From Mytilus edulis (taxonomy: Eukaryota): 64,000 nucleotides of DNA. The position numbers and the translations under genes are program-made. Below are positions 2,431-64,000 of this stretch, piece by piece (position 1 is the stretch's first letter; every line of letters starts with the position of its first letter). Location of the stretch: assembly GCF_963676685.1 (NCBI RefSeq), contig NC_092348.1, forward strand, positions 96,534,001-96,598,000. Direction: 5' to 3'. The notes beneath the pieces were generated by a model, which was given only the letters and a program-made list of their open reading frames with translations, did not search any database and was not told the DNA's origin.

Positions 2431-2437
2431 ACTTAAC

Positions 2438-8747: not shown

Positions 8748-8795
8748 AATGATTGCTAGGCAACCTTCTTTTTAGCGGAACAAAAAAAATCATTT

Positions 8796-27710: not shown

Positions 27711-30700
27711 TCAAGACTCGGGGCGATTTAAAATCATATTATAGGCACCTGTCTTAGAAGTTTTAGAAATACTTTCATATCTCGGTGTCTTGATAAATTG
27801 TTTTAATTGCTGTCTCATTGACTAATACCATGTAAAACCAATATAATAATTTAAATTACAAAATAGAATGCTAAAGAAGTCACTTACTGGTATTAGCATC
27901 ACTGTCGGCTATCACTACTTCCGGTTGCTGTCTTGTCGTCTGCTTGACAACCTTAGCATATATTTTATTAGTATTTTCACCTGTTTCAATTGACTGTATG
28001 CTGGGTTGGTTCTTATAATACATTGTATTACTTGTATATGCAGGTTCTATTGGTCCAAAGTCTTCAATAGCTGTTAAAGTAATTCAAAATGAAAGTTATT
28101 AGAGAGTATATAGAAATGGCTTATGTCTTTATTGTTGTTTGTCTTTTCGCCTATTGTGGTCACGATGTTGTCTGTTTTATATTGATCTAATAATTTTTTA
28201 ATTAATACCTCATTTATATTAAGTTGTGCTATCCTGTATATGTCTGTTCCATAAGCCAATAGAATTTATTTTACCTCCTATATATTTCAAGCAATTTGAT
28301 TGATTAAAAGCGACCTCATGGAGACCGTGTATATTTCATATGGGGTTCGAAGCCGTTTTTTTTTTAAACACGGTTAGTAGTAGTGTTAAGTCCCATTATA
28401 CATTTATCTATATGTATAAAGATAAAAACACGGCGTTGAGGAAAAATCTGAAACGTTTTGATCAGACAACAGATGAAGAAATTGACAATGAACAATTGAA
28501 AAAGATGCAAAAACACATTAAAGCTAACAGGTTGCTATTGCTGGCATTTGCTTTTGTTAAGACCAATGGAAGTAGGTTCTTTATACTGAAGACTTGATCA
28601 CTTTAATAGGTCACTGTTCTAAATGTCACATGTTAATATCATCAGTAAGATAAATTCGTAACTCAGTGTGCTAGTGACCTAATACGATATATATGTGGGA
28701 TGATGGAATTTACTGAACCCATATATATCGCATTAGATGTAACTAATAATATTTTTACAACAAAGACACAAGGACTGCATTAGACAGTGTCATAAATGTA
28801 CCTTGTGGAAGTTAGTTATTCATTAATTAGGCGTTTAACCTCAGAACTCCAAGGGAGTCTTGGGAGTCAGTAGCCATAATTTTGAAACATTTTTTTTGTT
28901 TTCAAACAATTATAAATGAACTACGAGTTTCTTCACAAATGAATACAATTGACTGAATTATTTGTTTTATAAATTGTAAATATATATGACCACCTTATAT
29001 TCATTTAATGTCGAGTATATTATCAAATGCAAATACTCACGATTTTCTTTTATAATATCATCTATATCCTTTGAACTGAAAAAAAAAGTTATTTGGTTGA
29101 AGTTTACTTTTGTCATACAGATTTAAATGTCATCTTATGTGAGAAAATTCAAAGCAATACCAAAAAATGTTGATTTATCCAGTTCCGCATTTCCCCCAAA
29201 GTTCACATTAAGATTACCCTGGTTATGTTAATTGCGTTCTTCCATAATTTGAAAAAAAAATCTAATGTTTTAAAGAGCCAGTCTGTGATAAAACCATGCA
29301 AAATGGTCCAAATCCAAAATATTCCAATCAGACTGATATTTTGTATTTTAGATACCTTATATGTAATAACTATTTGTGCAAAATATTTTGAAAAAATATT
29401 CAGCCATTATTTGTGTATGCCGAACATTCGATAATTGTCTATTTCTGTACTGACAAATGGCCATTTCAAGCCTATTTTAGGGTATTTTAACCTGATTTTT
29501 TTTTGTTTTATAGAAAAAATACAGCTTAATGATAACAAATATCTTAACTAACAACTTAAAATGAAAGGAAATTATGATTATTCAAAAAGTTGTGAGATTT
29601 CTCAATACCCCTACTAATAGGTTGAAATTGCATGGTTTTGAAAAAGTGCCGATTCAGCAAAATTTGTATATTTTTAAAGGCTTGAATCTTGTAAGATCAT
29701 GTTTTATTTTCAATAAAATGTAATATTTCATGAAGCTTATATATTTATCTACAAAATGCAAGAAAATGGTGCTCGGCAAATGATACCTTCTTACGGGAAA
29801 ATAATAATTAAAGATAGGCGTGATGGCCATTTTGCCGATTTTTTGATTTTTTGTTCTGTTTCATTAGAATCTTTTTAAAAGTATGTAATAGTCAAAATAT
29901 AAGAAAAATAATGACTGAACTAATGTTTACTGGTTATATTAATTGAATAAACCAAGTTTAACTTAGTTTAAATTATAAAATATATTAAAGGAGTAAACCC
30001 GGGAAAACCGCTTTTTTGCATTTTTTGCCCCTAAACTGAGCATTTTTACCATATGTTTAAAATCTTAACTTATTCAAAAGTAAATTACTTTAGTAACTTA
30101 AAATGGGCTGTTTTATTTACAATACTATGCACACTCATCAGGTAATATCATCATGAGTTCTTCACAATTTTAGCATTTTATAATAGTCTAGTTTTTAGAC
30201 GCTTTTTTGTCTAAATTCAAAGTGGCCGCAATTGAGTTCACTCTTAAATTTTTAAAACATGTTGTATTTGATAATGATTCATAAAGCTGTTTAACATATA
30301 AGAGATAGAGACTCAACATGAATGCAACCCCTTGCAATTTAGACAAAAATACTATCATAAAAGTACTAAAAATTCTAAGCACGTCTCCTTCAGATGAAAT
30401 CAGGGTATTTTCTTTTCTAAAATAGTATGAAAATGTAGACAAAATTGTACAAACTGCGCAGCCTTGTACATCCATGTTATCTATTTCCAGAAAAGAGGAA
30501 GATTTAATAGTTTTGTGAATTTCATAGAATTGTGCCTTACCTAGAAAAGTGCTATATTTTGTATATTGTGATAAAGCTTTATGTCAAATATAAAGAGACT
30601 ACTCCTTGTAGTTCCTGATAAAACTGAAACTGAAATTTTGTGACGCTGACATGAACAAGTTCGTTATCCCTATGTCAATTCTGGGAGAACAGTTGACATA

Positions 30701-33700: not shown

Positions 33701-36700
33701 CCTTCTGAAAAAAAATCATAAAGATCTATACCCTTAAACTAAAGTTATTGTCCGGAATATAAGTCTACTTTGATCAGTTTTAGTTAAAATATTAAGGGGC
33801 AAAAACTATTACAATTAGTGCATGTTATAGATATTTGGGAGCATTTTTTTACCAATTTTCCAATATTTGCCAGGCTAAATTTTTTTACTTGTCTTAGAAC
33901 TGATATGCACCTTTAAAAAAATCCTAAAAGTTGACAAAAATAAATATGATCTTGAGAGAAAACACCTACTGAGTACATGTACTACATGCAAGTTATCTAA
34001 TACATCTGTTGCACGAACCTCTCTGGCAACCTGCCAAAAGGTAACAAAAATGTCAAAATGCATTTTTTCTTTTTTTTTGATAATGTTCTTTGCAAAATAT
34101 AACAAGATAATGCTATATTTAAGAGATATATAAATTATCCAGACCTTTAAAAAGAACCTAAATATGGTGATTTTTTTGCATTTTTTTTTTAATAATTCAC
34201 AAATATGCAAATAAGGCTGTAAAATGAAAAATAGTGTGAATTTACAAAAAAAAATTTTTTTATCTTAACTCCTAAATACCCAAAGATTTTGAAAATATAG
34301 ATAATTTTGCCCAGTTATAACTACCAATTTGGACGAAATTTGAGATTTTGCATGGTTTTATGGCAGACTGGCTCTTAATACCTTGATCTCCATGATCTCT
34401 TGCGTTGTTTTTCTGCAAATAAAAAAACAAAAAAAATGGTTAAAACTTAAAACATTTGTTTTAAATATGTCTTAGTGTATAGAAAGATAAAAATAAGAAA
34501 ATGAAGTATGCGTGTCAATGAAACAACTCTCCATTCAAATTTAAAAATTGTAAAAGTAAACCATTATAGGCCAATGAACCATTTGTCAGAAACGAAAAAA
34601 ATAGTACTAATTCAAGTTATTTGAGAACCATATTGGGCTGCTTAAAATGTCAAAATTACCAGTCAAATTTAAAACATTAGATGAACCTCACTATCTGCTG
34701 AACACTTTTATTATTATTTTAATTGAAAGTTGGAATACGGTTATCAAAATTCCCGGATATTAGTTTAGTTCTAATTCTTGAGAGACGGTGAAATGAAGAA
34801 AGAGGTGGCAAACATTTTAATAAATCATGGTAAAAGATTACGTGACAATGGAAGTTTACAGTTGTTATATCATCACCATCCCCCTAAAAAAAGAGAGATA
34901 AAAGTCCCCATCCCCCTAAAAAAAAAGAGAGATAAATCCCCATCCCCCTAAAAAAGTTTTTTTTTCATTGTAAACCGGGGAATCTGTACACTATCGCTAT
35001 TCGAAATTATTCGATACTTGTTGAGAGATTTTTGTTTTTCTGAATAAAACTTCATCAGTACTGCTCAAACTCAAACAATGAAAACTGTGTAAGTATTTAT
35101 TTACCTTTCTTTTGCTTTTTTCTGTAGCAGTTTACTACACAGGCAGCTAATATAATGAACACAACAGCACCGAGAACACCAGCTACAATAGCTTCTACCT
35201 TCACGGAAGATTCCGAATGAGGTTCTACAATAATACAATTGAAAAAAATGTGTTAGAAAGTCAAACATGTCAAGTTGGAAATAGGCATATGCAATTTGAA
35301 CGTTGGAAATGTCCACTGAGAAATGTATAATTTAATCTAAAATATGATAACTTGGAAGTGAGTAATGTCAAGTTGTCCTTTCAAACAGAGAATCAGAATA
35401 TCATTCCCGGATATGGATAAAGCCAGTATGGATATTCTTTAAAATATTTATACTGGAAAAGAAAGGATATGAGGTATCTTTTGATAACACGAAGTCACAA
35501 TAAAAGCAACCAAAGTCAAATGGACGGTACTTCCATCACTGAACGCATTCTAAAAGTCAGCATTTCCTTCGACATTAAGAAACACTCTAACCGTATCTTT
35601 AGTTAGTTAGATAAGTGTATGTTTATCAATTTCATCACTTTTCAGTTTTATAAGTGTGTTCTTTCCTCATAGATGACAAGTTCATACAACATAGACCAAT
35701 CAAATAATATATCACAACCATAATACTATATCTATAAAACGAAAGAGGCAAGTCATGTTCTTACAAAAAAAATCTCTAATAAAATGACAAAACAGTTGTT
35801 ACATAACATTGCATATCTCTGCTGCTTACAGTCAAACGTAAACTTATACGTTTGATATATGTTGTCTCTTTGACACATTCCCCATTTTCATTCTCAATTT
35901 TATTATAGTATAAGTGTCTTGTAATATATGCGGGATAATTTAAAGAAAATGGAGACATACGGATTATGCTTTTATTAGACCAACGAGTTGTTCTTTCACG
36001 TGCAAAGAGATTGTAAATAATTACACTAGATTCAGTGTTAAATATCTCCATTCCGAATGGACGTGGCTTCTTACTTATACATCCCCAAGGAAATGGTATG
36101 CCCTTCTTAAATGTGTGTACATTGGGAGACGTAGAAGTTTACCATTTGTTTCTGTTCTCTTGCAAGATTATCTATCGTCTATCGTTTTTAATTAATGATT
36201 TCATAAAACCATAAAACAAGGTTCAACCAGACATTTTTTTATACAAATGTCCCGTACCAAGTCAGAATATTGCAGTTATCAAATATAAAAAAGAAGATGT
36301 GGTATGATTGCCAATGAGATAAATAGTCTGTTTCTATATATATTGGCGTTTGTTTCTGTTACAGTTTCATTGTTTCTGTTCTTCCTTGTTTGTTTTTTCT
36401 TAATGTTTTTCTCGGTCTTAGTTTGTAATCGGAATTTGTTTTCGCTTACTATTGAATAGCAGTACTGTTGGTTCACTTCCAATTTGAACACTTACCAATT
36501 ATATTTACAGTAAAACTTGTATTGTCTTGTCCTATCGAGTTGCGTACCATAAGAGTGTATTGACCACTGTGTGAAGAATTAGTTTTTCCTATGGTTAGTG
36601 TCAGTAGATGAATTGCGTCATTACTAATATCAGATATCAGAACATTGTTGTCTGAAATTAAGATCCGATTGGTCTGAGAGCTGTTGGATCTGAAATACCA

Positions 36701-39700
36701 CGTGATGTTGGGTTGAGGAAAAGCTACTATCTTAGTTTCTAATGTAAACATCCCTCCAGCCTCGATAGAGATCTCGTCCCGGTTGTTTGTGCTCTGATCT
36801 TTGTGCGGTGAACCTGCGATATTTGGTATTGAGAATAACTTAGACATACAAATCCATTCAAGAATTGTCAGATGCATTAAGTAGAACATAAAAAGTATAT
36901 ATAAATGATGCTGAAAATAACTTTTCGTTCTAACGAGAGTGGAATTTCAGTAGATGGTAGTTAATTAAGCGTATAACAAAACATAGTAGCTAGAAAAGAA
37001 ATGAAGTTATTTCTTGAACATGCAAACAATAAAAAGTACCTGCATGACCCGTTGTCGTTGGTATGTTCGTAAGACCTTAGTGCTAAACATGACTTATTTA
37101 TTCTAACAGTTATTTTAAGAAATACAAGTTCACTAGCAGGGGTGAACCCTGAGAAAATTAACCTTATGACACAGATTTCAGTATCATATGCCAATGTCAT
37201 AATGAAGAGACCATTTATATCAGGCCAATATCGGAGCATGGACTTCTTGGGGAAAGTTTACTCGGGTTTACGCGAAGCTATAAAGACAAAGTTATGTAAA
37301 TAAGTTGTGCATATTCAAAAGTAATTTTCTTACAGAAGACACTTAGTCTGAAATGAAGTCTGTCTGGCTGAATGAGACCATTATCGACAGAAACCGTATA
37401 GTTTCCTGTGTCCTCACACTTAGAAGTCATATTCAGACTGCTGTTCGTGACGTCATTTTCTGTCAGCAATATGGCGTCGGTTCTATCTCGTGTCCATGTT
37501 ACGTTAGGTAGAGGTTTGCCTTCTACATCGACATAAGCTGTATATGTTTGTCCTTCTGTCATAGATGTATTTGTAGTGTTGAACATCAAGACTGATCCTT
37601 TATCTGAAAAGGACAAGTACATGATATTTACATACTTTACTCAATACAAGATACGAGATGCAATATATGTGTTCCAGACCGTATGAGGATTTTGACCGTA
37701 CGCGTACGGTCTGGACCGTATGCGTACGGTCTGGACCGTATGCGCACATTTTCAAAGTACGCGTACGGTCTGGCTGATATTAAGAAGTTGGTCAAGTTTA
37801 TTAAATAAAAATGTAAATAACAGATCAACAAATCTTATATCTCAAATTAATATAAAAAGTTCAATTGATATTGAAATGAAAACATAATATTTTAACTTTC
37901 TAAAAAGGTCACGCTAGTTTAATCTGTTAATCTCCTGTAATTAGCATGTCAGTAGACATGTTACGAAAAGGTATATTCTCGTCGCTGAGGTTGACAAATT
38001 ACCCTTTTTTGGGGACGGTGTCAAAACATTGATTATAGATAAAAATTAAATCATGTGCGTCTTGGTGAATTCAAATCACATTTACGTAATATCCTAATAT
38101 TATGACACTTGCTTTTGTGATATTGTTGACTATCAAACGACTTGAAAGTTGTACGCGTGTAATAGTGGGTGGGATAGAAAAAGGGGGGCTGAGAGTTATA
38201 CAAGTTCATTCGATTCTAGATTGATTATATATACATAGTAAGCCAGTTAGATAATAATTTTATTGTTGTATTACAGTTCTTCTTCTTCTTATGGTATCCA
38301 GTTATCCATCAGATTTTTGATGATTACTAACTGCTAAATCAGTTCCTGAAAAAGTTTAACGTATGGCTTTATTAATCCCACACAACGCGCTATTGTCTGA
38401 TTGATTTCTTCTCTCGGGTGTCTCCATAAGCTTCCATTGACTCTGAAAGTTTTGAAACGCCTTATATCGTGTTCGACATATACCCGCCACTCTTATTTAC
38501 ACAAATTCATTTTTTTTACATTTTCTTCTTTCTGCTCGTCGTTTAGCTCTTAGTTGATGCCTTTTTCAAATCTAATCCTAGCCCCCTCCCTCTCCCTAAA
38601 AAACCAACTGGTAGAGTACACATCTATAAAACGCCATAATAATTATTTTAGGAAACCCCTAGCATTGTTAGCTTATATAGAGGAAAGACCCATCGGCCAT
38701 CGGTGTTAATTTTCCTATTGTCATTTTCTTATGAAACGGTTGGCGAATTTCAACCAAACTTTCCAAGAATTTGAAAAATACAAAATATCTGCATAAGGTG
38801 GTGTTAAGGTGTAGATGCAAAGTCATTATGTAATGCTTTTGAAACTCTGCGGGAATGTTCAACTGATGAGTAGTGAGTCATATTTTACACAAACCTCTTA
38901 TCGTTCTAAACAGGCATTAAATATTTGCCACTGAACGTTATGTAACCAATAATCAATCAATCACAAACACCTTATAAAGAAAATACAAATTGAGCTGAAA
39001 CTGTTTAAATTAAGACAAAGTTGGAAGAAAATAAAGGAAGAAAAGTCATGCCCTCGAAGCTATGTGACCGGGAGTATAAATTTTCTACATTAGAATGCAA
39101 CATGATTCGAGTTGAAATTGTATAAAACTCATGTCTATGTGTTTTAAAACAGACCCCGTCAGATAAAAATTTAGGTGGCAAACAACTGGATCAAAATACA
39201 TAAACTTCTTTGTTTGCTTTTCATACCTATATAAAAATGACCGTTACATATATTCACGAGCAGGTATTTGTAAAGCAGTTTATAATAATTAAGATTATTT
39301 GCAACTTCTATCAATTTTGCAAGGGCTCGACCGAAATATTTACACACGCATGTACCCCGTGTATCCGTTGCATTTACATGACCGCTCCCTCCCCCCTCCA
39401 AATATAATATTTCAACGGGGAACTTTAAAAAAAAAATGAAAAAAAGAAAAAGAATGCATATGCAAAGGAACATGCATGAACTGCAAACATGTAAATGTAA
39501 AATAAAAAAAAAACATTCCTTGTGGTAGTAAGTGTCAACTTGAGCGAGAGTACAAAAATAGGATTCAGATATATAGAATTAAACAAGCCGACCGTGCAAG
39601 GGCTGTATAGCCAGTCAAGGTCGTTAAAAACTTCCATTTGTTAAATTAAACAAACATTTAATTTTAATTGTACGCTTATTCATTTTATCCATCTAATGCA

Positions 39701-42700
39701 AAAATAATATAGATCTAAAACTACAAATTTTTGGAAATTGTTTTTTTTTTTAATTTAAGCCATATGATACCAAAACATGTACGGTCCAAATACTCGTATG
39801 GTCTGGAACATATGTAATCAGAACTATATAAAGCTTCATCTCTTGCCTTTCTGTAAGGATTAATGAAAGCAGAAGCTAGACTATTACATCATGTCTTCAT
39901 TTTATTCGGTTGTTATATGAAATAAAAGATGTTGAATCATTAAAATTTGTAGACATGGTATAGCGTAAACAATGGTTAACAATCACGTAATTTTGAACGC
40001 ATATCCGCCTAGACGTTAGCGGCGTTCGTTTTATTTTCAACGAGACGCTAGTAATTAATGTAAACTATAATGGCGGCGACCTGTGGACCGTCCCTAAATT
40101 GAAGGCTGAACTGAGCATTATTGGAAAACGCATCTACTCGTCCCTAGTACAAATACTGCGAATAAATTACTCGGGTATGCATCCTAAAAATGTGTTTTTC
40201 TATTGCGTATTATTTTCTGTGACATTTTTCTTTTCAGGTTTATGTACCAACCCTTCATTGGATTTCACTAGTTTTGTGTTCTCTCTAAATTGACATTGCT
40301 TTTTTTAACACTAGAGAAATGAAAATGTAGTTTGTGAATCAAATAATGAACTTACATAAAACATCCAGAAAGACGTAATTTGTTGTCGGATCTCCGATGC
40401 CATTGGTTGCATTACATGTGTAGTTGTTAGTATCGGTTCTGTTTAAATTATCTATAGTCAGAATATTACTGGTTTGTTCGGAAATCAGTTCTGAATTAAT
40501 AAACCATCTAAAATTGTTGACTGTAGGATTACTGTCCAGGATTAAGCAGGATATATTATATTGTTGAGTTCCTTCTATTGGGATTCCATTTGGATAAACA
40601 TCAATGTCCGGGGGATCTAAAAGAAAAGTCAATGAACAATAACTCTAGCGACGACAAACTCGATGCTAACAATGTGAAAATAAAAGTTTATTTCGACTTA
40701 TTTTTCTTTAATAAAGCAGATAATGGTTTATGTTCAAACGAAAAGTTAACACTTCATTATTATGAACACTATCACAAAAAATGACGTCTTCACTATCCAG
40801 ACCATGACATAATCAATTTAAACAAAATGACATCAACAATATAAGTCATATAGCGGGATGGTCATCTGAATGTTCTTTTTTGGCGGAGAGGGGTGGTTAA
40901 GGGTGGAATATACAGTTTCACCTGTTACTAAAACGGCTTTTTGTTTCTTTACTTTTTACGCATATAGTTTTTACTTTGTGTTGTGCAGAATATACATGGT
41001 CATCTTGTTTTAAAAAGTTTTTTTTAGTTCTTACCAGTCCAAAATATTCATTTCATTCTAAAACGTGTCACCAGTATGACAGCATCACTTTGACAATATT
41101 TCTGCTAAAAATTGCCAAGATCCTTCAAACACTTTGACAAAAACCCAACTTAAGTTTTCAAAGCTTCTTAAAGTTCGCCAAATTAAATTAAAATTGAGAA
41201 TGGAAATGTGGACTGTGTCAAAGAGACAACAAACCGCTCTAAAAGCAGAAAACAGCCCAAGGCAACCAATTAGTCTTCAACACAGCCAAAAAATATCGCA
41301 TCCAGAAGCGCGCTTCAGTACAAACCAACAGTGTGTCTACCCTTTCCAACAATTTTGCTATGATTACAACCAACAGTTCACATGATTCTTATTTTCAAAA
41401 CAATTGACAAGATTCACCTCTTACAATTACTGCTGTCAACTCTCCTATCTAACAAGTATGACATGATATCTTTTAATTGTACACCCTGACACCTTTCGCT
41501 ATTTAGGGAGATACCTTCGAAAAGTTCCAACATATATAAAAATGAGATATAAGATATACGCCAGCAACCAAACGATTAAGATAACCAAAGCAAATCTATA
41601 ATATCTTACATGTAATTGATAAGTATATTCTAGATGATTCTTCCTGTTCTTCACCACTCTCCGCAAAACAATACAATCGCTCCGAATTATCGGTCCTGTT
41701 CCCTGTATACGTTAGCGTACTGGTTCCCGATGGTCCTGTTTCATCAAACGTTGTTATTGTATAATTGTCATGAATCTGACGTCCAGATACGAACCATGTA
41801 AAATGTGGTAGAGGACGACTTCTAGCTGAACACGTGACATTGACTTCATCTTTCTCTTGTAGAGTTATGTTTTCTTTTATTTCCATATCTACAGCAACTA
41901 ACGGTACTGTTACATAAAAGAGTTTATATATTTAATTACTTTATGTAAAACGAATCGGTTTGCTTAATTTTTTTTTTAAACCAAAACGGTTTAATGTACG
42001 TGTGGATGTGTGTTTTTTTCCAACAAATCTTTTTTTCATGGGGAAATCTTTCCCGGATAATTGATATAGACATCTTACCCGGCCACGTCCACTTATATTT
42101 TTGTCCATCTGATGAGCTAAGCCTTTTTCAACTGATTTTTATAGTTCTTTCTAATGTTGTACTGTTATACCACTGTCCCAGATTAGGGGGAGGGTTGGTA
42201 TCACGCTAACATGTTTAACCCCGCCACATTTTTAAGTATGTGCCTGTCCAAAGTCAGGAGCCTGTAATTCAGTGGTTGTCGTTTGTTTATATGGTACATA
42301 TTTGTTTTTCGTTAACTTTTTTATATAAATAAGGCCGTTAGTTTTCTCGTTTGTATTGTTTTACATTGTCATATCGGGGCCTTTTTATAGCTGACTATGC
42401 GGTATGGGCTTTGCTCATTGTTGAAGGCCGTACGGTGACCTATAGTTGTTAATGTCTGTGTCATTTTGGTCTCTTGTGGACAGTTGTCTCATTGATAATC
42501 ATACCACATCTATGGCAAGCCGTTGTGTAATTTATTCTCTTTAAGAATAGTAAGAATAAACAAAACTTTTTCAACTTGTAATTTTTACAATAATTGGCAG
42601 ATTGCCGGATAAAAGCAGGTGTATCGTAGTATTTTTGTTATTCATATTTTCCACTGAACTGATTCAGCTACATGCTTGCAGTAACGTATAATCATCGTAT

Positions 42701-45424: not shown

Positions 45425-45643
45425 TTTGGACAAGGTCCTTATCGAAGTAAGAGAAATAATTTCATACAAAACAAATTACAGCTATCTAAGACAAAGTCAT
45501 AAAACTATAAATTGTGTTGACTTAGAATATTTACAAATGTAGGGTGGGTTTTACAACGGTTATAATCAAGTGTTAGTCCGTATGTTGTCGTTAAGACAAT
45601 AACTTTGGCAGTATGATGGAAATGTAACACGAACAGTACACAG
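45425..45643. promoter_or_regulatory. Candidate bidirectional promoter and 5' UTRs between gene A (ATG 45424, -) and gene B (5' UTR exon ending 45643, +)
   Basis: Divergent ATGs with 362 nt between them; donor CAG|GTATGT at 45643/45644 and acceptor TTCAG at 45771 define a gene B 5' UTR intron. Confidence 0.55.
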
Positions 45644-45786
45644 GTATGTTACTCAACAAAACTTGATAATGTTGTCATATTTTATTAAAAAATTAATCAC
45701 AAACATCAAATTCGTAAATTTCTGGTATACATCAGAATTTAATAATGCAATGCTGTTTTATGTCTATTCAGGTATATAGAACTGCA

Positions 45787-48700
45787 ATGGTTGGTACAAG
45801 GTCATCACGGCTGTTCGCTTTAATGGTGATTTTACATTTAACAGTTTGTGAAGGTAAGCTTTGATAAAAAAAAAAATAAAAAAAATAGAGATGTGGTATT
45901 ATGACCAAAGTCTTGTAAAGGACGAAGATGGGACGGTTACAGGTCACATGACAGTCTTCAACAATGAGCAAAACCCCAACAGTATATTTAGCTATAAAAG
46001 GCCTCGACATGACAAAACATAAATCAATTTAAAAGTCAAAAACAACTACAACTTTAATCGAACTACTTTTATGGCAGACCTTTTAAGTAGCTATAACTAC
46101 TGGATTACATCTTCCAGATTTTGGGTATACGTATACGTATTACTATTTGGAATGTAGCAGGGATGACCATGATTATTTACTTAACACTTCCCCTAACAAG
46201 TACCGGTCTTAGAATGCTCGTACTTACTAAAAAGTTCTAAAACGAATGTCCATAAATGAATGAACCATTTTCTACAAGACTTTAGATCACTGTACGGCCT
46301 GTTCATTGTACAATGAAAAAAAAACCAAGCCGTAAAGTATTATGGTAATTTATATCTATATCCTAACATTTATAGATCCGCACACACTAAACAAAACCAA
46401 ATATTCGTTTTTTGTTTTTCAGGACAGCTGACTTTTTCTACGGGTTATATCATTGAGGGACAGCCAATAACAATTTTCTGTAGAATACCTGATTTTAATG
46501 GCATAGCTCACTGGATTAAAGATGACGAACAGTTCACAGCAACAACTTGTAGTAATTCTGGTTTTTGTAAGGTAGAAAATGAAGGCACGAGATACAGGTA
46601 TGCCAGTAATGTTTCTGGTATATCTGTGACCATTAGTAATATAGCCAGAAACGAAGAGAGAGATTGGAAATGTGGCCATCCTGGATATGATTCAACAGTC
46701 TACAGAATACGGTATAATGAGAATGTTTTCAGTAAGTATAATCAAAATCAATACTCTGATATTTTTGCTGATGATAGCACTATTCCTGTGATTGGGGAAA
46801 ACAAGTTGTATAAGTCGAACACAAAATAATATATATTTTATTCAGATTTTTTTTTTATTCTGAAGGAGTTTGGGGAGGGGCAAAAAAGATTCATCTTTTT
46901 ATTTGTTCTACCTATTAATTTCATGTAGTGTAGACGTTTTTTTTTTCAAAAGTGATTATTTTCTTTAGAAGGGTGGTTAAATATTTCGCGGTGGTGTCTT
47001 GTCAAGGCTATTTTTTGCCTTGTTTGTTTGCTTTTTGGCCTTGAATGTGTGTCCCTTATATTTTATTAAGTATGTATTTGCATTCAGGTATCGCAGATCA
47101 AATGTATTCGTTTATAGTGTGTTGATTTACCTTTTTTGATTGAGTTAAGCCTTCCAATTGATATTTTATCGTGTGTTTTTCTATGTTGTGTGATGGTGTA
47201 CTATTGTTTCAGAAAAAGGGAGAAGGTTAAAACGTTTAATCCCGCTGCAAATGTTTGCACCTGTCCTAAGTCAGGAATCTGATGTACAGTAGCTGTCGTT
47301 TGTTTATGTAATTTATACGTGTTTCTCGTTTTTTATATAGATTAGACCGTTGGTTTTCCCGTTTGAATGGTTTTACACTAGTAATTCTGGGACCCTTTAT
47401 AGCTTGTTGTTCGGTTTGAGTCAAGGCTCCGTGTTGAAGGCCGTACATTGACCTATAATGGTTTACTTTTATAAATTGTTATTTGGATGGAGAGTTGTCT
47501 CATTAGTTTAAACAATATTTTATTCAAAAAGTGCATGAAATATAATTATAGAAATGTGTAAAAAAACGTTTAATAGGTTAACATAATCAAAAAAAGGGGT
47601 TACCCAAACCCTGGTATCCTATATTTTTCCTATTCAAGGTATACCAGTGTATTTTCATAGATCTCCGTTTTAGTAGAACTTATATCGAAATAATGCATCC
47701 AAGCAAATTTGATTTCGTCATTATCCGAATGAGTTTGCCTCCATGGGGTAAATCTGCAACTTCAGTTTGATTTCAGGCTTTATTCTTCTCATTTTACATG
47801 TATACGCGATTGTTCTGGAGTCAAAAATATATATGAATTTGTTTTAAAGCAATCACATTCTCTCTAGTTTTCTTCATGACATCTTTAAATATAAATCACG
47901 ATCTCCAATTCTCAAAACGTCCATTGTATACGCGCGTTTGTTATCCGACCCCTCATCCGGGACACTTTCAGCGCCACATGACACTTTTATTGGTATTAGA
48001 GATTTGCGCATCCGCAAACGGAAGGCCGGACGAATAGGTATGGATTGTGTCATCCGAACTTACAAAGTGATAAGAGTTAAATGCTATGCTTCAACTGTAG
48101 TTTACACATACTTTATTGTCCAAAAACATTGACAATAGGGTTAGACACAAGTTTTGCGACTTTGAACGTCTTCTTCACGACTGTAATAAATAAGTGAGAG
48201 GTTTGGTTCCGTAGAATATATATGTGGTCTCTATATTATTATGTATACAAACAACATATGAAACCATTCTTGAGTATAAGTGTTATTTTTTTTTATTGGG
48301 CCTGGGACTTTCCCCATTACGTTGATGTAATTGAACTTTTGAGGTTAATTTGTCATTGTTTTTCACATTTTCGAGAACTTTTGTCATTTATTTCCCAAGA
48401 ACTTTTAAATATCAACTTCAGTAATTTTGATTGCCCTTAAACACATTTGATACTCTTCTTTATTTTAAACTTAATCCAAGCAACATTCCCACATGTATTT
48501 GAAAAGTTATCCATGTCTTTATCTGAATTACAGTTATATCCGATAGTGTAGTAGTAGATGGATTGGACAGGAATGTAACACTAGGAGATGATATACCCAC
48601 TGTTACACTAACTTTTACTACGGGATGTATGCATCCATATCCAACAGTTGCTGTTTACTCCAAACAAGTAAGTATTCCATGTAATGTTAGGGAATGTAAC

Positions 48701-49872
48701 ACTAAGAGATGATATACCCACGGTGACCCTGACTTTTACTACGGGATGTATTCATCCATATCCTACAGTTGCTGTTTACTCCAAACAAGTAAGTATTCCA
48801 TGTAATGTTAGGGAATGTAACACTAAGAGATGATATACCCACGGTGACCCTGACTTTTACTACGGGATGTATTCATCCATATCCTACAGTTGCTGTTTAC
48901 TCCAAACAAGTAAGTATTTCATGACTGTAATAACTGAACATAGGAGAGAGGTTTGGTGCCGTAGAACATGTTAGGAATGAATAACGTGTAAGGGTAAGCG
49001 TTAATGAGACAGAAAAAAACATGTCACGTTTAAGTTAATTTTATATGCTTGAAGCTGCGTATTTTGTTAAATATATTAATTGGAACTTTTGCCGTTGACA
49101 CAGCAGATCTGATATAGGTCACAACTTTTGTTATTTTAACACAATCCAGCGGTGTAAAAGTGACTACCTGTGAACCTAAAACACACTGAAATATTCTACA
49201 AAGTCATCTCTATGAATGAACACTTTTTACGTAAATGATTTTAGATTTTCTAAATATTCACAGTAAAACTATTCAAAATAAAACAATAACATACAAACTA
49301 TACAATTGTATATAAGCTAGCAAAGTAACATAAGAAATATGCACCTTTAAATCACGAAAAATATCCAACAATTTTAGGCTTCGTGTACGCCATGCGCGTT
49401 TCATCTACAAAAGACCCATCGGTGACGCTTAATTCAAACATCTTAAAAGGCCAAATAGTGTACGCAGTTGAAGAACATTGTGGGACCGAAAGTCCGAAAG
49501 TTTTTGCTGAATTCAGCAATATAAGAATTTCAATTGTAGTATGTTGACACGTGAAATAATACTTTACATGATTCAAAAATGAACCTGTACTCAGGTAAGG
49601 TACTTTTTAACAATGGTTAATAAAAATCGGTTTCTTTTTTCAACAGAACACTAACGCATCAATCACTTCAGAAATAGACTATGTGAATGTGACAAGTACA
49701 ACGTGTACGGTTCCTGAAGCTGGTTATACAGGGGCGATAACTATTTATTCAGATACCACTTGTAATACTACACTCTTCCCACGATTGCTGATTACGCCGA
49801 CAGGTTTACCATTGGAGTATACTACAACTGAATGGATGTCCAGTCATTTCATAAAGTTTCCTACTTGTAAAG
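45787..49872 (+). CDS. Gene B ectodomain exons: signal 45787-45853, Ig V-like 46423-46731, second Ig-like domain split over 48534-48667 and 49647-49872
   Basis: MVGTRSSRLFALMVILHLTVCEG | QLTFSTGYIIEGQPITIFCRIPDFNGIAHWIKD...VTISNIARNEERDWKC; phases 1,1,0,1 all compatible; GT-AG throughout. Confidence 0.85.
48570..48920 (+). repeat. 121-bp tandem triplication of an exon 3' part plus splice donor
   Basis: Copies at 48570-48667, 48691-48788 and 48812-48909, each followed by GTAAGTATT. Confidence 0.95.
49387..49428 (-). ncRNA. Degenerate hammerhead, family 1 (core CCGAUGG, cleavage triplet damaged); further degenerate minus-strand copies at 18209-18250, 59474-59515, 59683-59719 and 57587-57631 (family 2)
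   Basis: Alignment by eye to the 60875-60918 and 30795-30838 motifs and their flanking repeat. Confidence 0.6.
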
Positions 49873-52800: not shown

Positions 52801-54862
52801 CTGAAGTTTAATTTTAACTACAATATCAAATATAACATGTATAATGATGTGGGAGTCGGGGGACATCATCATAATGACAGAACATGCAGGGCTAGTCTAG
52901 GAATTAGAAGGAGAAATCGAATTTATTTATCAGCAAAAACCTAAAATTATTGAGTCAGTTAAAAATGAAACAAAGATTTTAGTAATGTTTTAACATCAAA
53001 GATTACTATGAAATAAGGTTCTGTTTCCTTCGGATGAAGTTGACCATACCTGAATTTGGCTTTTATTTTGTGTCCCACTAGATCTGTACCACTGCTGATG
53101 GACTATTAGCCTCAAAGGGTATCATCAGCTCAGTAGTCAGAGCTTCGGTCATTACATGGTTTATAACACAAATTCTCAAATTCCTCGTTGAGAAATCATA
53201 ACATTAATAGAAGCTATATGGCCAACTTAACTTCCGATTGCCTCAGTCAAAATTTACCTAAGACAAATTTGGTTATTCTTTTTCATGTTTGTTTTTGGTT
53301 ATACAGCTACTTACGTTCATTCCTGGATTACAAATGGTTATGTTTCAACGTTCCTAATGAGGTTTATGCTAAGTATGTCAAAGGGAAATTTGAAGTAGCA
53401 TTGAAAAAGATGGTATATTGAAAAAAGACAGAAATTTTACTTAAAATTTGCAATAGACAAACTATACGATCCAACATAGGTTTTTTTTTTGTTAAATGAA
53501 TATTACACATTACCAAATCGTTTTTTTTAATTTATTTTCAAAAACGCTAAAACCCTTACTTTTAAAAGCAAGGACATATACGTACTCGAGTTCATGTAAC
53601 AATCTTCCGACACGAGGAATCGTATATGAATATAAGTCTTCCATTTACTGAAGTCACTGACATTGGAATGGCGGCAGAAATTAGCAAAACAAAAAGCAAT
53701 GCATGGACTACGAGTCTGAAGTTTTAACTTAACCCGATTACAATCTGACGAGGCTATGTATTTATGCATCTTTTTATTTGAGTTTAGCAGCCTTGTTTCA
53801 AACTTATCAATACATTGTTTTATTTTGATTTTCAAAACTGATTTTTTTATGAAGTATACTAGAAATGACCAGCACGTTGGTATATGTATGTACTTGTTAA
53901 ACAGTTGTCAGTCTCTGGGACTACTTATCTGTGTAAACCGCATTCTTTTGCATAGCCGATATCCACATTATCCAATTTAATTATTGTTTCTCGAAAACGT
54001 CGCAATTTTTTGTAACTGAATATACATTGACTTAAAAACAAAACTTTCAAGAACCGGAAATAGTAGACAGTAACGCAGTGATATTACCTTGCCTTGGTCA
54101 TCTGCGAATTTTATCATAGAATACCTCGCGTATCAACATATTATCAAATACAGAATACTTGATTGTTGCGCCAATGTGCCCAGCGATTTGTAAAGGAGGA
54201 ATACAAGTGTGTGCGTGTAGTAAGGATTTGAATTGTAGAATTGTTGTTTCAGACGAACAGATGGAAGAAAAGATTATTAGCATATCAGCCACGGCGGGGT
54301 ACCATACAATGACATGTTACTACTTTTACGGCAATTCGAACCCATGTAAAGTATTTCAAATCATTTCATACTCTTAATATAAAGATTGTGTGATTTCATG
54401 CGACGCTTCCCTTTCCGACCCATCTGATCTGTATTCGTTTGGAGTTAATGCGCTTCCTATTTCTTTTTTGTCGTCAAGGTAAATGGCAATCGTACCCTTT
54501 TTAACATCGGTACACCACTGTTGTCGTTTTTTTTATAAACTTCCAACTGTTTCTGTCAAAAATCTATGACTCGACGTACAGATGACATTCAAATAGTTAT
54601 AATATAGGTGTTCAAACCAAAACCAATCATTTAGACAACACGATCCTGTTTGTGAAGAGGACTTACATAGGCTTTGCCTGTTGCCCAATCCAATTCAATT
54701 TATATGAATAAAATACTGTTTAAACTAAACGATCCCGTTTATTCATGTGACGTCAATGTCAATGTAATTCATATAAAGACCCATAAACCATATGATTAAC
54801 TCTGTTGTAAGTATAATGTTTGTCCAAACGTTATTCTTAATCATGTGTTCAACTTTTAACAG

Positions 54863-55479
54863 ATGAACAAACCAGTCCTGGATTGACGCATTCTACTCAG
54901 TCTGATTACGTCACAACAACTGTTCATTACGTCACGACTCTGTCTGTGAACGACTCGACTACTCAGTCTGTGGACGACCAAGCTACATACCAGGAAATGT
55001 CATCGTCTAACGAGAAAGTCGAGATGGCTGTTGGAATATCCATTGGCTGTGTTGTCCTTCTGATAATTGTTCTGTACATTGTTATTTTGGTGTTCAAACG
55101 AAAGAAAAGTCATGACCAAAACCTTTTTGATAATCTTTCACAACCTGAATCGCATACCCAATCTTTGGTGCCATCTATTATATCTGTAGATCAGTTCGGA
55201 AATGATTATGATGTTAACTTTAATTCTAAATTGTTCTCTGGAATGTTGGAGAGTTCTAATCCTACCTATCAGGTGGAAGTTTGCAATAATGAAATGAGAA
55301 CATCTTCTGAACATGAACAAATGGCAAGTTCTGAATTAATTCTTTCGCCGGAATCTCTGTGTAAGTCTGCAGATAAAACATCCTCTTATTCCAACGAAGC
55401 AGATACAAGTGTTCGCCAGTCTGATCCTGATAGTAGTTCTAATTCTGGAGACGAAATAACATTTGTACTCAAAATGTAA
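54863..55479 (+). CDS. Phase-1 terminal exon: Ser/Thr stalk, single TM, Ser-rich tail with NPxY (gene B isoform or a separate decayed gene)
   Basis: Acceptor TTTTAACAG at 54862; open to TAA at 55479; TM MAVGISIGCVVLLIIVLYIVILVF then KRKK; SSNPTYQV; AATAAA at ~55547. Confidence 0.75.
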
Positions 55480-59112: not shown

Positions 59113-62100
59113 CTTTGGGAAGATTGACAACAGAGGAAGCCTTTGGATATGCTGTTTTGTTTTCCTTGGTGGGCATGGTTATTGGAGGGATTTTAATACT
59201 TGTATTGTACAAGATACTATTGAATTCAGGGAAACTATCCTTGTTTGTACTAGGTTAGTATGAACATGTAATTTATGTAGGTTTCATGTGTAATCCCGTT
59301 TGAAGCGTCAATTTCATGAGATTCACATGATTCATTGATTCCAAATTTTTGTGAAATGTCTCCCTTCGTGGGACACAAATAACAACAACAAAAAGACAAG
59401 TGCCAAACAATCTTAACAAGAATAACTGAAAACAGACATCCTCAGTAAAGATATCAGACACTTATGATTAGGTACGGCAGACGTGCGTTTCGTCTACATA
59501 ATTCTCGAGTGGTGCTCGAGTTGAACCAACTAGAAGGCCAAATAAAAAACAAAGTTAAAAAGAATGAAAACAGATCTAATACTGAATTGTTGTTTTTAAG
59601 CGTTTGTTTAACACGAATGAAAGTCATCACCAATTTTTCTTGCATTATTTGCCTTAATAGTTCTCAAAGCTTATAATTTAATACGCCATACGCGCGTTTC
59701 GTCTACACCTCAGTGACGCTCATATCATAATAGTTAAAAAGTCAAACAAGTACAAAATTGAAGAGCACTCACCATTCAAACTATAATACTGTATAACTGA
59801 TGTACTTCTTCATCTTTTTAACACTTGTTTAAACATGTTTATATGGTCATGTTTAATCGTATTTTACAGAGTCTACGCACGAATCCAGTACAAAACTGAA
59901 GCTGTACATGACGTCTGCTCTTATAACAATCCTTCTCTGTTTTGTTATCGCTGGCATTGTGGTAGCACTGGATTGTGGAAATACGGAATGTTTAGGTATA
60001 AACGAAACTGATATATAATATACACGGCAGCATACATCAAGACGGCCAAAGGCTAAGTTGACCATAGATGAATTCTTGTTATGCCTGTTTTAGTAATAAT
60101 TTTTTTCACGTTTTTATGTTCCTTTACTTGTATATTCATAGTTTTCAATGTAAAGCTTTTGGGCTTTTCAAATGTAGATATACCCAGAATAGACTTTGGC
60201 AAGCAACTAAAATATAGTTTAATTTTCATCTATAGGTTATATACAATTTTCAACAGTAAAAGTTTCCATCAAATATTTCACGTTGCAAATAAGTTAAAAT
60301 ACAAACGACTCTTCTATATCATTACGCTAAGTTCATACAAAACAAGGAAATTGTATTTTTTTTTGTCCTAAGCATACAAAATGCAGAATTGTCAAAGAGT
60401 ATATCCCTATCAGCAGAATGTTTGTTTCCATTTTGTCAAAATAGGGGTTTTTTTTTTAATCTAAATTGAATGCTTATTTTTGTTGTTTCTCTTTTTGGTG
60501 TGTAATCCGGATTTGTTTTTTTCTCGATCAATTTCATACTTTTGAACATCAGTATTCTACTGTTGCCTTTTATTTATGTATTATTGGCTTTCAATAATTC
60601 AACCTCATTTGAATCTATATTCATGCGACCTTCAACTTGAACTTAGCTGGAGATGGGATGTTTATGTGCTAATCAAAGTTACATGAGTTATCATTGATAT
60701 GGTTATATTTTTAAATTAACTGTTTACAAAATTTAGAATTTTTGAAAAACTAAGGCTTTTCTACCTCAGACATAGATTACCTTAGCTGTATTTGGCAAAA
60801 CTTTTAGGAATTTTGGTCCTTAATGCTCTTCAACTTTGTACTTTATTTGGCCTTTTCAACTTTTTTGGGTTCGAGCGTCACTGATGAGTGTTTTGTAGAC
60901 GAAACGCGCGTCTGGCGTATATACAAAATTTAGTCCTAATATCTATGATGAGTTTATTTACCAGGATTATAACAGGATTATTATATAAGGGATAAGAAAA
61001 TTCCTAGTTTTTCGTGATTAGTAATTATGAAATAATTAAATAAATGACTACATTGACAAAGAAAGAACAAGGAGCTACAGGGCAGAGTTTAAAATAAAAT
61101 ATGAGAACTTTAGTCAAATCAGTGATCCTGAATTTGACAGGTAATGTCCCTTGAAAGGTGCATTATCTGTAGGAGTAATGTTCAATGATGTACCCCTAAT
61201 TCTCATTTCTGATTTTACTGAAAAGTATATAAAAAATAAACAAAAGTCACAAAGTAACAATTGACAACATATATGTATTCTATACTTGACGCCATCTAAT
61301 TTTGAGATGACTTCCGCAGACTTTCGAGGGTCTGAGCAATATCGTTTTACTAGAAAGATGAACTTGTGTCATTTCAGAAGTAACTATTGGAAGATCTGTA
61401 GCATTTATAGTACCTGGAACCTTGTTACAGTTACTGAGTGTGTGTATGGTAGTTTATATGTTTGTAAGATGTTTCAGTAGAGATAAACGTAAGTAATTTA
61501 GTTAGTGAGTGTCTAGAGGTTTTGTGTGAGATCAAGTTAACAGTCGTACAAATACTCCGTTTAATTATTTTTATGAAATGGTGAAGTTAAAATATAAGTT
61601 GTTATTTCCCCAACATTCCAAGGTTTGTATTTCATATCATGATATTCTTGAAGCCATTAAACCAAGAGTTCCAAAAGGTGAAGTTGAAGTAATCCCTTTT
61701 TAAATTTTACGGATGAAATCATAATCAGGTTGACCGTTATTGAATATCTGATTCACAGATGATAACAGATATGTTCATAGTGTCGTTACTACAATTTTAT
61801 ACACTTTCCCGATCTACCGAATTACAATTGTTACCTGGTTTGTAATGATATAAGTACCACGACGGGTGCCACATGTGGAGCAGGATCTACTCACCCTTCC
61901 TGAGCACATGAGATCATCCCAAGTGGTGGGGATCGTATTGCTTATATTTTTTTTCTATGTTGTGTCTTTTGTGTAATTTTTTTTTGTCTTATGATCTTTT
62001 TTCTTTTCTGATCATGGCATTGTCTGTTTATTTACTACTTAATAGTTTGAATGTCCCTTTGGAATCTTTCATTTCTCTTTTAGAATAAAGGGGATGGTAC

Positions 62101-64000
62101 CTTTAGCATATTTCAAATAAAAGAATAATACCTTCCTCTTAAACTAAGTCATTTTAAAAAAGAAACGGTAAATCTCTTGTAGATTGAGGTATCATTTTTT
62201 GAATGACCTTATGATATGTTTCTCGCAAACAAACATAGTTATCATGTCAGAAAGGAAAGTGAAATAGTTTTCTTTCAGTTCTGCAATCATTGTTTTTAAT
62301 ATGAATACTGTTGGCACAACTTTTTAAAATTTCGGGTCCTCAATGCTCTTCAACTTTGTACTTGTTTGGCTATTTAACTATTTTGATCTGATCGTCGCTG
62401 ATGAGGCTTACGTAGACGAAACGCGCGTCCGGCGTAGTAAATTATAATCCTGGTATCTCTGATAACTAATTAAATACAGTAAAAATTTATGAGGTATTCC
62501 AAACAGCACTACAGAGGATGTTAATATTATATTTATTTCAGGTGGAGTAAAACGAATGGAGGAGTAAGTATGACTTAAGATAAAATTTCCATTCAAACAT
62601 TACATCAAGTATTCAAGATCATGGAATTTAACTACTCAAGTGATCATAATTGGTATTCAGATTCTGTCCAAATTAGTGATTACGACTTATTTTTGCAATA
62701 GAATGACAACATATAGAACAAAATGATCCATTTTTGTTAAACATGCCTTTTTAAGCAGATAAGGAAATATCAGCTTTCAGTATGCGAGATCAATTCTTGT
62801 TATTGTTATCAATGCATTGATAATTCTCTCGATAAACTTTTCTCTGTTAATTTGAATGACGATATTTTATTCGTACATATAGTTTATTTATGTAGCAATG
62901 TATTTACAGAGATCACGTGGACAATATTTCTCACTATGGTAGAAGATCGGTAACCATAACACCGTCAGCTATTGATGTGTAAGCACTTTACAATCTTATT
63001 CTGAGCTTAGTTTTGTATCTAACAATCCATGTTAGTTGATATGAGCAGAAAGGGATTGGCTGATGTTGGGTGCATGTGTCTAAGAAACAGCAAAATACTA
63101 ACAAAAGACACATGAGACATGTAGATATGTTTTTACGATTTGCACAGAAAGCAGAAAGATAAGATTATATGTCTATCACGTGATATAATGACTTTGATGG
63201 TAAATAAGGGGTGTTAATTTGTAATTCAGACTTGGCTAGGACAGTAGAAGGTTCTATAAAAATAATAAGATACATTCAGATTTTTTGCTCGTCTGAAAAT
63301 ATTTTAAATTTTTTTCGGTGATCTTCGCTAGGTAGCTATTTTTATTTTGTCTAATTTGATTTTTATATTTTTGCAGTGATAATGTTGGAAATTACCATAA
63401 CAATCAGGTTTACAAACAGAGTGAGAACTTTGTCAGCTCTAACGATTCCAAAACTCGTACTTTTGAAACATCTCGACAGAATGCCGGAAGAACATTAAGT
63501 GAAAAATCTGAAGACAGTTTGAATCTACATTCCGACCGCGGATTCGTTAACAAGTCTTCAAGAACGAATACACAGCTTCCAAGGTCATCACACAAGGTCA
63601 GGGATAACAGCGAATCTGAAGTCAGTATTGATCTCAAATCTGACAGATCTGTCAGTAAGTTACAAAAAGATGAACATCGAAAGCTAGAACCGTTAATAAG
63701 CACGCCTTTAAAAGAAACTGGTTTGAACAGAAAACAAGGTGATAGCGGGTATAATTCGAAGAACCCTGGCAGCATCTCAAGTGTTGAAAACAAAGATGCT
63801 GTTTTATTAAGTGGCAAAAGTAGCACAATGACACCTGCAAACCAGCCATCGGATAAACAAGAAGTTTATAGTGACAGCAGTTCCAATTCGAGTGACGAAT
63901 CAATCAAAGATGGTGGCTTAAGCCCGGATATATATAGAACAGATCATACACGGAGCGGATCTAGACCAGAAGTGATTCGAAATACGTCAACGCCCGCTAC
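59113..64000 (+). CDS. Three-TM plus long cytoplasmic tail exons (probable 3' part of gene B), partial: 59113-59253, 59870-59995, 61378-61488, 62542-62563, 63377->64000
   Basis: Phases 1,1,1,1,2 chain with no stop: ..AFGYAVLFSLVGMVIGGILILVLY.. | ..LYMTSALITILLCFVIAGIVVALDCGNTECL | EVTIGRSVAFIVPGTLLQLLSVCMVVYMFVRCFSRDK | RGVKRMED | DNVGNYHNNQVYKQ... The last exon is open for 624 nt to the window end. The TM1 donor choice (59253) is less certain. Confidence 0.75.
60875..60918 (+). ncRNA. Type I hammerhead ribozyme, family 1, intact core, in a ~270-bp retrozyme/PLE-like repeat (~60690-60960)
   Basis: GCGUCA CUGAUGA GUGU-UUUGU-AGAC GAAA C-GCGC-G UC^ UGGCGU; one stem II mismatch; cleavage predicted after 60912. 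Confidence 0.8.
62393..62434 (+). ncRNA. Type I hammerhead ribozyme, family 1, intact core, in repeat ~62310-62470
   Basis: CGUCG CUGAUGA GGCU-UACGU-AGAC GAAA C-GCGC-G UC^ CGGCG; compensatory G-C for A-U in stem I; one stem II mismatch; cleavage predicted after 62429. Confidence 0.8.

Follow-up and report, generated by a model that had tools for sequence, protein, structure and literature searches.

In Botryllus, the paired fester-type (FF) and FcoR genes lie head-to-head and are co-expressed, and their products have been proposed, though not yet shown, to form a heterodimer (PMC12582321, PMC12065747 and PMC11507803). FF consists of a signal peptide, a V-like immunoglobulin (Ig) domain, a sushi domain, three transmembrane (TM) segments and a short tail, and FcoR of a V-type Ig, a sushi domain, two C2 Ig domains, a TM segment and an ITIM (immunoreceptor tyrosine-based inhibitory motif), hemITAM (the hemi form of an immunoreceptor tyrosine-based activation motif) or core YxxI/L/V motifs (PMC12065747, PMC12582321). 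Here we describe a head-to-head pair of Ig-domain genes, A on the minus and B on the plus strand, in a 64,000-nucleotide window of chromosome C5 of the mussel Mytilus edulis (C5:96534001-96598000; gene coordinates below are window positions). The pair had been predicted from sequence to be an ITIM-bearing receptor and its multipass partner, on the analogy of SIRPalpha/CD47 or the Hydractinia Alr complex. Its layout matches the one seen in the only known invertebrate head-to-head allorecognition receptor pairs, and we tentatively read it as an old, divergent pair in which A is a variable sensor and B a conserved three-pass partner. What is new here is the asymmetry between the first domains (D1) of A and B, a second head-to-head pair of the same families, and the recognition of Botryllus fester/FcoR as the closest published layout.

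CD47 combines one IgV domain with five TM segments and a short tail, SIRPalpha carries a V-set domain followed by two C1-set domains, and the two genes are unlinked in vertebrates. The N-terminal domain of SIRPalpha is polymorphic and CD47 is monomorphic (PMC11188633). The roughly 41 genes clustered in the Alr complex encode single-pass proteins, the majority with an FN3-like fold (10.1101/2022.03.04.482883). Among bivalves, the oyster receptor CgIgIT2 combines five Ig domains with a tyrosine motif, and the motif of CgIgIT/CgIgIT2 is termed an ITAM in the text of a review and inhibitory in a title that the review cites (PMC11999971).

Gene A has 10 coding exons plus a last exon and encodes 642 amino acids, with a signal peptide, five Ig domains, a single TM segment and a tail of ~90 residues; all nine internal introns are canonical GT-AG and in phase. 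Orthologue models are present in five Mytilus species, and Pfam recognizes I-set, Ig_3 and C2-set_2 domains in them, the second domain being C2-set_2 at E 5e-12 and 1e-14, with no C1-set match at E<=0.1; no FN3 match was found in A. Exons, introns and orthologue domains thus agree on the minus-strand five-Ig receptor originally proposed, and its KIYAKV motif is contiguous within the exon at 27888-28070. The best sequence matches in the PDB are FCRL5, SYG-2 and Dscam (E 5e-13 to 7e-11), while a search with the tail exon returned a single fragment that runs on into the intron and may be DNA. D2 to D5 occur once in the M. edulis genome, and D1 has two further paralogous exons at 83.61 Mb (C5:83608000-83615100, L018 and L019), 68% and 38% identical to A-D1 and without A's other domains. 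The nearer, 68% exon is followed by a Thr-rich stalk-like exon. These exons are possibly decoys or conversion donors.

Gene B comprises 10 exons encoding 715 amino acids. After the signal peptide and D1 come a second domain encoded by two exons, TM segments on exactly three exons, all in phase and with three hydropathy peaks, and a tail of ~345 residues in which no ITIM was found. Four of 24 sequencing runs were compared with the locus, X1 and X3, whose RNA status is a guess, and X21 and X23, which are raw RNA. The contigs of X1 and X3 contain at least six gene B joints at GT-AG or within 1-2 bases of it, and one 866-nt contig connects D1, both D2 exons and TM1 across a 9.2-kb intron, indicating, with the same guess about these runs, that the three-TM form is transcribed. 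RefSeq holds the same three-TM protein (LOC143078654, LOC134720608) in M. galloprovincialis and M. trossulus, so contigs and models agree with the Ig ectodomain and in-phase TM exons first reported. A fourth TM exon near 60095-60236, taken from hydrophobic open reading frames (ORFs), is present in no model and was dropped. In M. edulis, both genes are broken in their RefSeq models (252 and 184 amino acids): that of A is truncated and bears the tail-exon variant of a distal, duplicated copy, and that of B ends inside a 121-bp tandem repeat (2.9 copies, 48570-48923). Through this repeat, the end of one B exon is present three times, splice donor included.

The start codons of A (45424) and B (45787) lie 362 nt apart, as computed from both gene structures and as originally noted, and because they are so close, one bidirectional promoter likely drives both genes, judging by distance alone. 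Possible short 5' untranslated region (UTR) introns are visible in the spacer (45425-45786) on both strands (B donor 45644, acceptor 45771; weaker for A), and if real they would bring the two start sites closer still. Run X1 yields contigs of both A-D1 and B, those on A-D1 differing at 18 of 237 nt, and neither X21 nor X23 has depth on A-D1 or on B exons. Co-expression of A and B is likely, on thin evidence. The accession numbers of A and B are adjacent, and their contig the same, in M. edulis, M. galloprovincialis and M. coruscus, and in M. trossulus too the genes lie on one contig; two metagenome scans for B relatives, aimed at linkage outside Mytilus, gave no match. We found no published description of the pair in a literature search that did not extend to gene identifiers or subscription journals.

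Set beside FF/FcoR, the mussel locus shares the head-to-head order, with a gene encoding a V-type Ig, a second domain and three TM segments next to a type I multi-Ig receptor, as well as a core YxxI/L/V tyrosine motif, variation in the first Ig domain and alternative splicing; B has the N-terminal V-like Ig and three TM segments of FF. It differs in that A has one core YxxV motif (8/8 models) whereas FcoRs carry at least two, that the B tail has ~345 residues where that of FF is short, that sushi domains were detected in neither A nor B, and that A has a C2-set_2 second domain and five Ig domains in all instead of IgV, sushi and two C2 domains. The mussel has one three-TM gene, and one further, distant pair with a single-pass B-type gene (B'), where Botryllus has dozens of pairs that vary in gene content as whole units, and no fusion/rejection trait is known in mussels, unlike in Botryllus. 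No homology to FF/FcoR was detected among the 25 matches that gene B gave in 1.84 billion representatives, a search that included no direct comparison with FF/FcoR sequences. A HECT ligase gene like that beside FF/FcoR pairs was absent from the ORFs of at least 75 amino acids in the 29 kb past B, a scan that short exons could escape. We therefore liken the mussel pair to fester/FcoR by analogy of architecture and do not count it as a member. That likeness would make A and B partners on one cell, not a receptor that meets its ligand in trans.

Sequence variation is distributed very unequally over the two genes. Relative to the M. edulis reference, A-D1 is 75, 74 and 71% identical in M. galloprovincialis, M. 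trossulus and M. coruscus, compared with 93, 91 and 87% for D2-D5 and 97, 98 and 92% for the tail exon, an excess divergence with Fisher p values of 9e-7, 2e-5 and 9e-5 in the three species comparisons, in which four full A-D1 sequences are available. A-D1 nevertheless keeps its frame and all four cysteines. B-D1, in contrast, is 99, 97 and 90% identical in the same species. The hyper-polymorphism suggested for the N-terminal Ig domains thus appears in A-D1 (71-75% against 87-93% for D2-D5) and not in B-D1, which is conserved at 97-99% in the edulis complex. In trees that leave out models P0001 and P0010, where these domains are missing or duplicated, seven D2 sequences fall into two lineages, each with an M. 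edulis and an M. galloprovincialis member (support 99/96). D1-D2 gives allele lineages of the same mixed composition (96/96 and 99/96), whereas the tree from D4 to the tail recovers the species split (100/99). Grouping both M. edulis D2 sequences is rejected (approximately unbiased test, p-AU 0.014) for a group picked after the distances had been seen. The D1-D2 pattern fits an old balanced polymorphism or introgression, as far as sequence comparison can tell.

A second pair of the same two Ig-domain families stands head-to-head at C5:66626000-66647000 (66.63-66.65 Mb; L040-L042), 30 Mb from A/B. Its minus strand encodes an A-type D1 (21% identity, 4/4 Cys, E 3e-9 to a profile built without it), followed by eight more Ig exons, making nine Ig domains, an exon that looks FN3-like by eye, a TM segment and a tyrosine-bearing tail. 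On the plus strand, B' is a small gene with a B-type V-Ig D1 (31% identity) and one TM segment; a scan behind it found no TM exons, but its control recovered just two of four known TM exons, making it uninformative. The D1 exons are 5.7 kb and the candidate start codons 2.1 kb apart. With at least 19 kb upstream examined and family counts that are lower bounds, two of eight A-type and two of ten B-type loci are paired. Under a uniform null, computed with 11 B-type exons where 10 were found on C5, the naive chance of such a second pair is 0.1-0.4%. The pairing looks non-random and, since both families recur as a pair with no more than 21% (A-type) and 31% (B-type) identity, the order is probably old, as judged from these identities. 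No direct inverted-duplication link between A-D1 and B-D1 was detected (hhalign probability 1%), and prediction of an A-D1 + B-D1 complex without alignments scored 0.00 twice, which is uninformative either way. Elsewhere in the genome, seven or more B-type V-Ig exons follow one another in tandem on a single strand (C14:59088000-59134000, L050-L054) and make up either a repeat-bearing gene or a cluster.

The structure model of B-D1 is a V-type Ig with a predicted local distance difference test score (pLDDT) of about 90, matching CD8alpha with Z 12.4 and a root-mean-square deviation of 2.4 over 97 aligned residues. CD47, SIRP or sushi chains are not among the best 50 fold-search matches listed, which does not exclude them. 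D1 is the only domain resolved in the ectodomain model, the second domain having pLDDT of about 35-40, and prediction of full-length B failed (mean pLDDT 30). The second domain, with four cysteines, has no Pfam match; Atlas leans toward a C2/C1-set Ig at 0.84, which we treat as a lead only.

Gene B is single-copy in the genome apart from D1. Its relatives in the search of representatives include fragments, matching D1 at 55%, D2 at 46, 54 and 38%, TM1 at 56%, TM2 at 48% and the tail at 48 and 46% identity, so that D1, both D2 halves, TM1, TM2 and the tail all have relatives at 38-56%. Ten of the 25 matches were looked up, and the three bearing species names are bivalves. B-D1 also matches D1 of bivalve type I Ig receptors (E 8e-7, 4e-9), and outside the Mytilus models and the fragment records no relatives of the three-TM segment and tail were found. 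In the tail (63377-64000 and L011:1000-1319), DSGYNS, IISVPTG and a lysine-rich end closing in III or IIV are held in relatives less than 50% identical, and DSGYNS and the polybasic end are retained in all five three-TM-type tails checked; we take DSGYNS to be a degron-like DSGxxS motif. The 9.2-kb intron also contains an exon, missed in the original prediction, of 205 in-frame codons (54863-55479) that is 79% identical to the M. coruscus model CAC5387545, which uses it. One X1 contig covers 55052-55236 within this exon; a joint to exon 4 was not observed in reads. The exon likely ends a single-pass isoform, and B may thus switch between one and three TM segments.

Gene A had been called an inhibitory receptor on account of a second tail motif, SAYNMI, that matches the ITIM consensus. 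Under the strict definition [ILVS]xYxx[ILV] (10.1101/2022.03.04.482883), KIYAKV fails with its K at -2. SAYNMI is contiguous in no reading frame of the window and is formed only if 27887 is spliced to 27748 (AG at 27749), across an intron of 139 nt. Neither SAYNMI nor any strict ITIM occurs in the eight Mytilus models of A, of which four end in ...ANTKL through an acceptor at 26793 (all three RefSeq XP_ models among them), three read through to ...ANTSK and one ends elsewhere. RefSeq models lean on RNA evidence. With an acceptor matrix trained on 19 acceptors of genes A and B, the KL site, 1094 nt from the donor, ranks third of 64 AGs (+2.5) and the SAYNMI site fifteenth (-2.7), two of the 19 true acceptors scoring below -2.7 in a leave-one-out check. 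None of the 18 supported introns is as short as 139 nt, the smallest having 346 nt, and an ITIM consensus arises by chance within 20 amino acids at 93 of 3002 random YAG sites in the window (3.1%). The SAYNMI motif is therefore probably the product of a mis-splice and likely absent from the real protein. A minor SAYNMI isoform is possible because the 3' junction of A was unseen in RNA reads and two true acceptors score lower. Since every annotated isoform is without the ITIM on which it rests, the inhibitory label loses its footing.

These results lead us to a reading, to which we give a probability of roughly 35%, in which A and B form a divergent pair of old standing that is likely co-expressed, A being the variable sensor and B its conserved three-pass partner in cis. 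One bidirectional promoter would drive both genes, and A-D1 would owe its diversification to binding a variable ligand from outside, either microbial or non-self. A would signal through a phosphorylated IYxxV to an SH2 protein and not through a canonical ITIM, and B would join A in cis and supply an invariant V domain and a long regulatory tail with its degron-like motif. The same model has been proposed, and is equally unproven, for Botryllus fester/FcoR.

Several observations weigh against this reading. In the polymorphic Botryllus pair both partners vary and in the mussel only A does, and B, unlike FF, is long-tailed, with no sushi domain detected. The second pair does not repeat the three-TM layout, B' being single-pass; six of eight A-type and eight of ten B-type loci stand alone over at least 19 kb of upstream sequence, and the chance estimate is post hoc and ignores the clustering of Ig genes. 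Linkage of A and B within one genus is the default expectation, both genes carry possible 5'-UTR splice sites, and X3 has B at a depth of about 60 with A-D1 at a bin depth of 0.42, although a divergent A-D1 allele could fall below the 90% threshold and for A only the D1 exon was covered. Monophyly of the edulis complex in D1-D2 is not rejected (p-AU 0.19, 0.43), dN/dS, the ratio of nonsynonymous to synonymous substitution rates, is unmeasurable between A alleles and 0.38 against the nearest paralogue, and the second "allele" models of A could be paralogues in other individuals. One study found no allorecognition between mixed mussel haemocytes (PMC12956514).

Ranking close behind the sensor-and-partner reading, and doubtful in its turn, is the view that A and B are co-regulated bystanders, inherited together with a shared or crowded promoter region, whose proteins do not interact. 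A would then belong to the large nephrin/hemicentin-like family of bivalves, as a variable receptor or adhesion molecule acting by itself, and B would have another task. Overlapping promoters can by themselves preserve head-to-head gene order, most loci of both families are unpaired, C5 is rich in both, X3 has B without clear A, and the D1-D5 region of A can be aligned with unionid "hemicentin-like" type I receptors that stand alone (E 1e-13, 2e-17). Bivalve receptors of this hemicentin-like/nephrin-like kind (Potamilus KAK3608745) have a D1 like that of B, but they are single-pass where B has a three-TM segment and tail, and both the parallel with FF/FcoR and the two pairings at 21% and 31% identity, which imply an old order, speak for more than coexistence. 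It is less likely that A is a polymorphic adhesion receptor, homophilic or allele-specific in the manner of Alr1/Alr2, or a gamete or tissue compatibility factor, with B not its ligand. Its variation is focused in the membrane-distal domains and old allele lineages cross species, and Alr proteins are polymorphic members of the Ig superfamily with allele-specific homophilic binding that share with A atypical Ig domains which Pfam misses, polymorphism of the distal domains and tyrosine motifs (10.1101/2022.03.04.482883). The locus is however a pair of two unlike genes, not the linked Alr-like complex that had been invoked: A is single-copy in the genome and lacks FN3, B is multipass, mussels are solitary, and the mixed haemocytes showed no allorecognition.

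About as unlikely, by a shade more so, is that the divergence of A-D1 reflects relaxed constraint, gene conversion between paralogues or mis-assigned paralogues and that the adjacency is chance. A D1 paralogue 68% identical lies on the same chromosome, and the comparison uses just four full D1 sequences and no allele-level dN/dS; against it, A-D1 retains its frame and four cysteines, D2-D5 are single copy and a second head-to-head pair exists. We consider least likely of all the model put forward originally, in which A is an ITIM inhibitory receptor and B a "self" ligand on other cells, as in SIRPalpha/CD47. The part of this logic that holds is the contrast between a variable receptor tip and a near-invariant Ig-multipass partner, the distribution described for SIRPalpha/CD47 (PMC11188633). 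A minor SAYNMI isoform would favor the model, as does oyster CgIgIT2, a five-Ig receptor termed inhibitory in a reference title; CgIgIT and CgIgIT2 resemble A as bivalve receptors with five Ig domains, one TM segment and a tyrosine motif, and the excerpt of PMC11999971 describes no partner gene for them. The ITIM and the architecture of B do not hold, and it is because the ITIM is probably a mis-splice and B is not CD47-like that the reading is weak. Unlike SIRPalpha, A has five Ig domains, no C1-set match and no supported ITIM (0/8 models); unlike CD47, B has two ectodomains, three TM segments and a ~345-residue tail, with no Pfam match to CD47 families at E<=0.1 (P0014, P0005) and no CD47 chain among five PDB matches at E<=10. 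A ubiquitous self marker should, moreover, neither be silent in two RNA runs nor share a promoter with a cell-type receptor, and SIRPA and CD47 are unlinked.

The features of the window are collected in Table 1. As originally noted, A lies tail-to-tail with a tandemly duplicated leucine-rich repeat (LRR) gene, of which there are three copies, with about 2.9 kb between the stops. This gene contains 54-bp mucin repeats and encodes a short acidic tail; the other copies are at L014:468 and L015:6627, and repeat number differs between them. A duplication of ~15 kb (-11380..5157 against 12999..28109, 89-98% identity, window 1-5157 pairing with 23791-28109) contains, besides the LRR gene, an orphan copy of the A tail exon. 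The two tail-exon copies read VIK and VVK, and because these variants also segregate among the orthologue models, the duplicate is possibly an uncollapsed haplotype. About 11 kb past B, at L012:2239-5364 on the minus strand, an intronless ORF of 1042 codons has a long acidic run, no convincing Pfam or NCBIfam family and a C-terminal stretch that may be nuclease-like. A broken reverse transcriptase of a long interspersed nuclear element (LINE) adjoins it.

Table 1. Features of the A/B locus and its surroundings, in window positions
Feature	Position	Strand	Evidence
End of ~15-kb tandem duplicate, with second copy of A tail exon (4936-5118)	1..5157		
LRR, mucin repeat and TM gene (one of three copies in tandem), tail-to-tail with A	14857..23847	+	LRRNT E 1e-4
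Gene A final coding bases, annotated isoform (...TKL end)	26786..26793	-	4/8 models, 3/3 RefSeq
SAYNMI "exon" of the original prediction	27711..27748	-	Intronic in annotated models; acceptor unsupported
Gene A tail exon with YxxV motif KIYAKV	27888..28070	-	IYxxV retained in 8/8 models
Gene A short cytoplasmic exon	29041..29075	-	Exon structure
Gene A short cytoplasmic exon	34382..34412	-	Exon structure
Gene A TM exon	35105..35224	-	Hydropathy peak 3.05
Gene A D5, I-set Ig	36496..36813	-	Pfam, exon structure
Gene A D4, Ig	37334..37603	-	Pfam, exon structure
Gene A D3, Ig	40356..40616	-	Pfam, exon structure
Gene A D2, C2-set_2 Ig; two allele lineages shared between species	41610..41906	-	Pfam, tree
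Gene A D1, atypical 4-Cys Ig, hypervariable	44137..44487	-	Exon structure; identity 71-75% between Mytilus species
Gene A exon 1, ATG (45424) and signal peptide	45370..45424	-	N-terminus identical in VDH89955, XP_063442852
Spacer between A and B ATGs, 362 nt, 29.6% GC; putative bidirectional promoter	45425..45786		
Gene B exon 1, ATG (45787) and signal peptide	45787..45853	+	XP_071176640 N-terminus
Gene B D1, V-type Ig fold	46423..46731	+	Structure model; identity 97-99% in edulis complex, 90% in M. coruscus
Gene B second ectodomain, first half; 121-bp tandem repeat next, triplicating donor	48534..48667	+	Contigs
Gene B second ectodomain, second half; domain with 4 Cys	49647..49872	+	Contigs
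Candidate in-phase Cys-rich cassette exon; single copy, 0 models, may be spurious	54154..54345	+	
Alternative terminal exon of B: stalk, single TM, NPTY tail, stop	54863..55479	+	CAC5387545 match, X1 contig
Gene B TM1 exon	59113..59253	+	Contigs, models
Gene B TM2 exon	59870..59995	+	Contigs, models
Gene B TM3 exon	61378..61488	+	Contigs, models
Gene B short cytoplasmic exon	62542..62563	+	Contigs
Gene B optional cytoplasmic exon (isoform X1 versus X2)	62910..62978	+	Contigs, RefSeq isoforms
Gene B last exon, extending past the window to 64319: Ser-rich tail, DSGYNS, polybasic C-terminus	63377..64000	+	

The analysis corrects the annotation of this locus, where the M. edulis RefSeq models break A and B and the proposed ITIM is probably not made, and it brings out A as a single-copy receptor whose tip domain differs in a quarter of its residues between closely related mussels. 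Even without any contact between the two proteins, A-D1 would be a strong candidate for pathogen-driven balancing selection. The recognition of foreign cells is of consequence in bivalves, since mussels pass haemocytes to one another and have contagious cancers (PMC12956514), and the locus offers a concrete, testable candidate for it. A bolder and improbable extension is that mussels have independently built a fester/FcoR-type unit from a head-to-head gene pair, in which a three-pass V-Ig protein and a hypervariable multi-Ig receptor with a tyrosine motif would join in cis as a heterodimer, under long-term balancing selection and distinguishing self from non-self cells. If true, it would be the first candidate receptor for non-self cells in bivalves and could govern susceptibility to transmissible cancer and gene flow in Mytilus hybrid zones.

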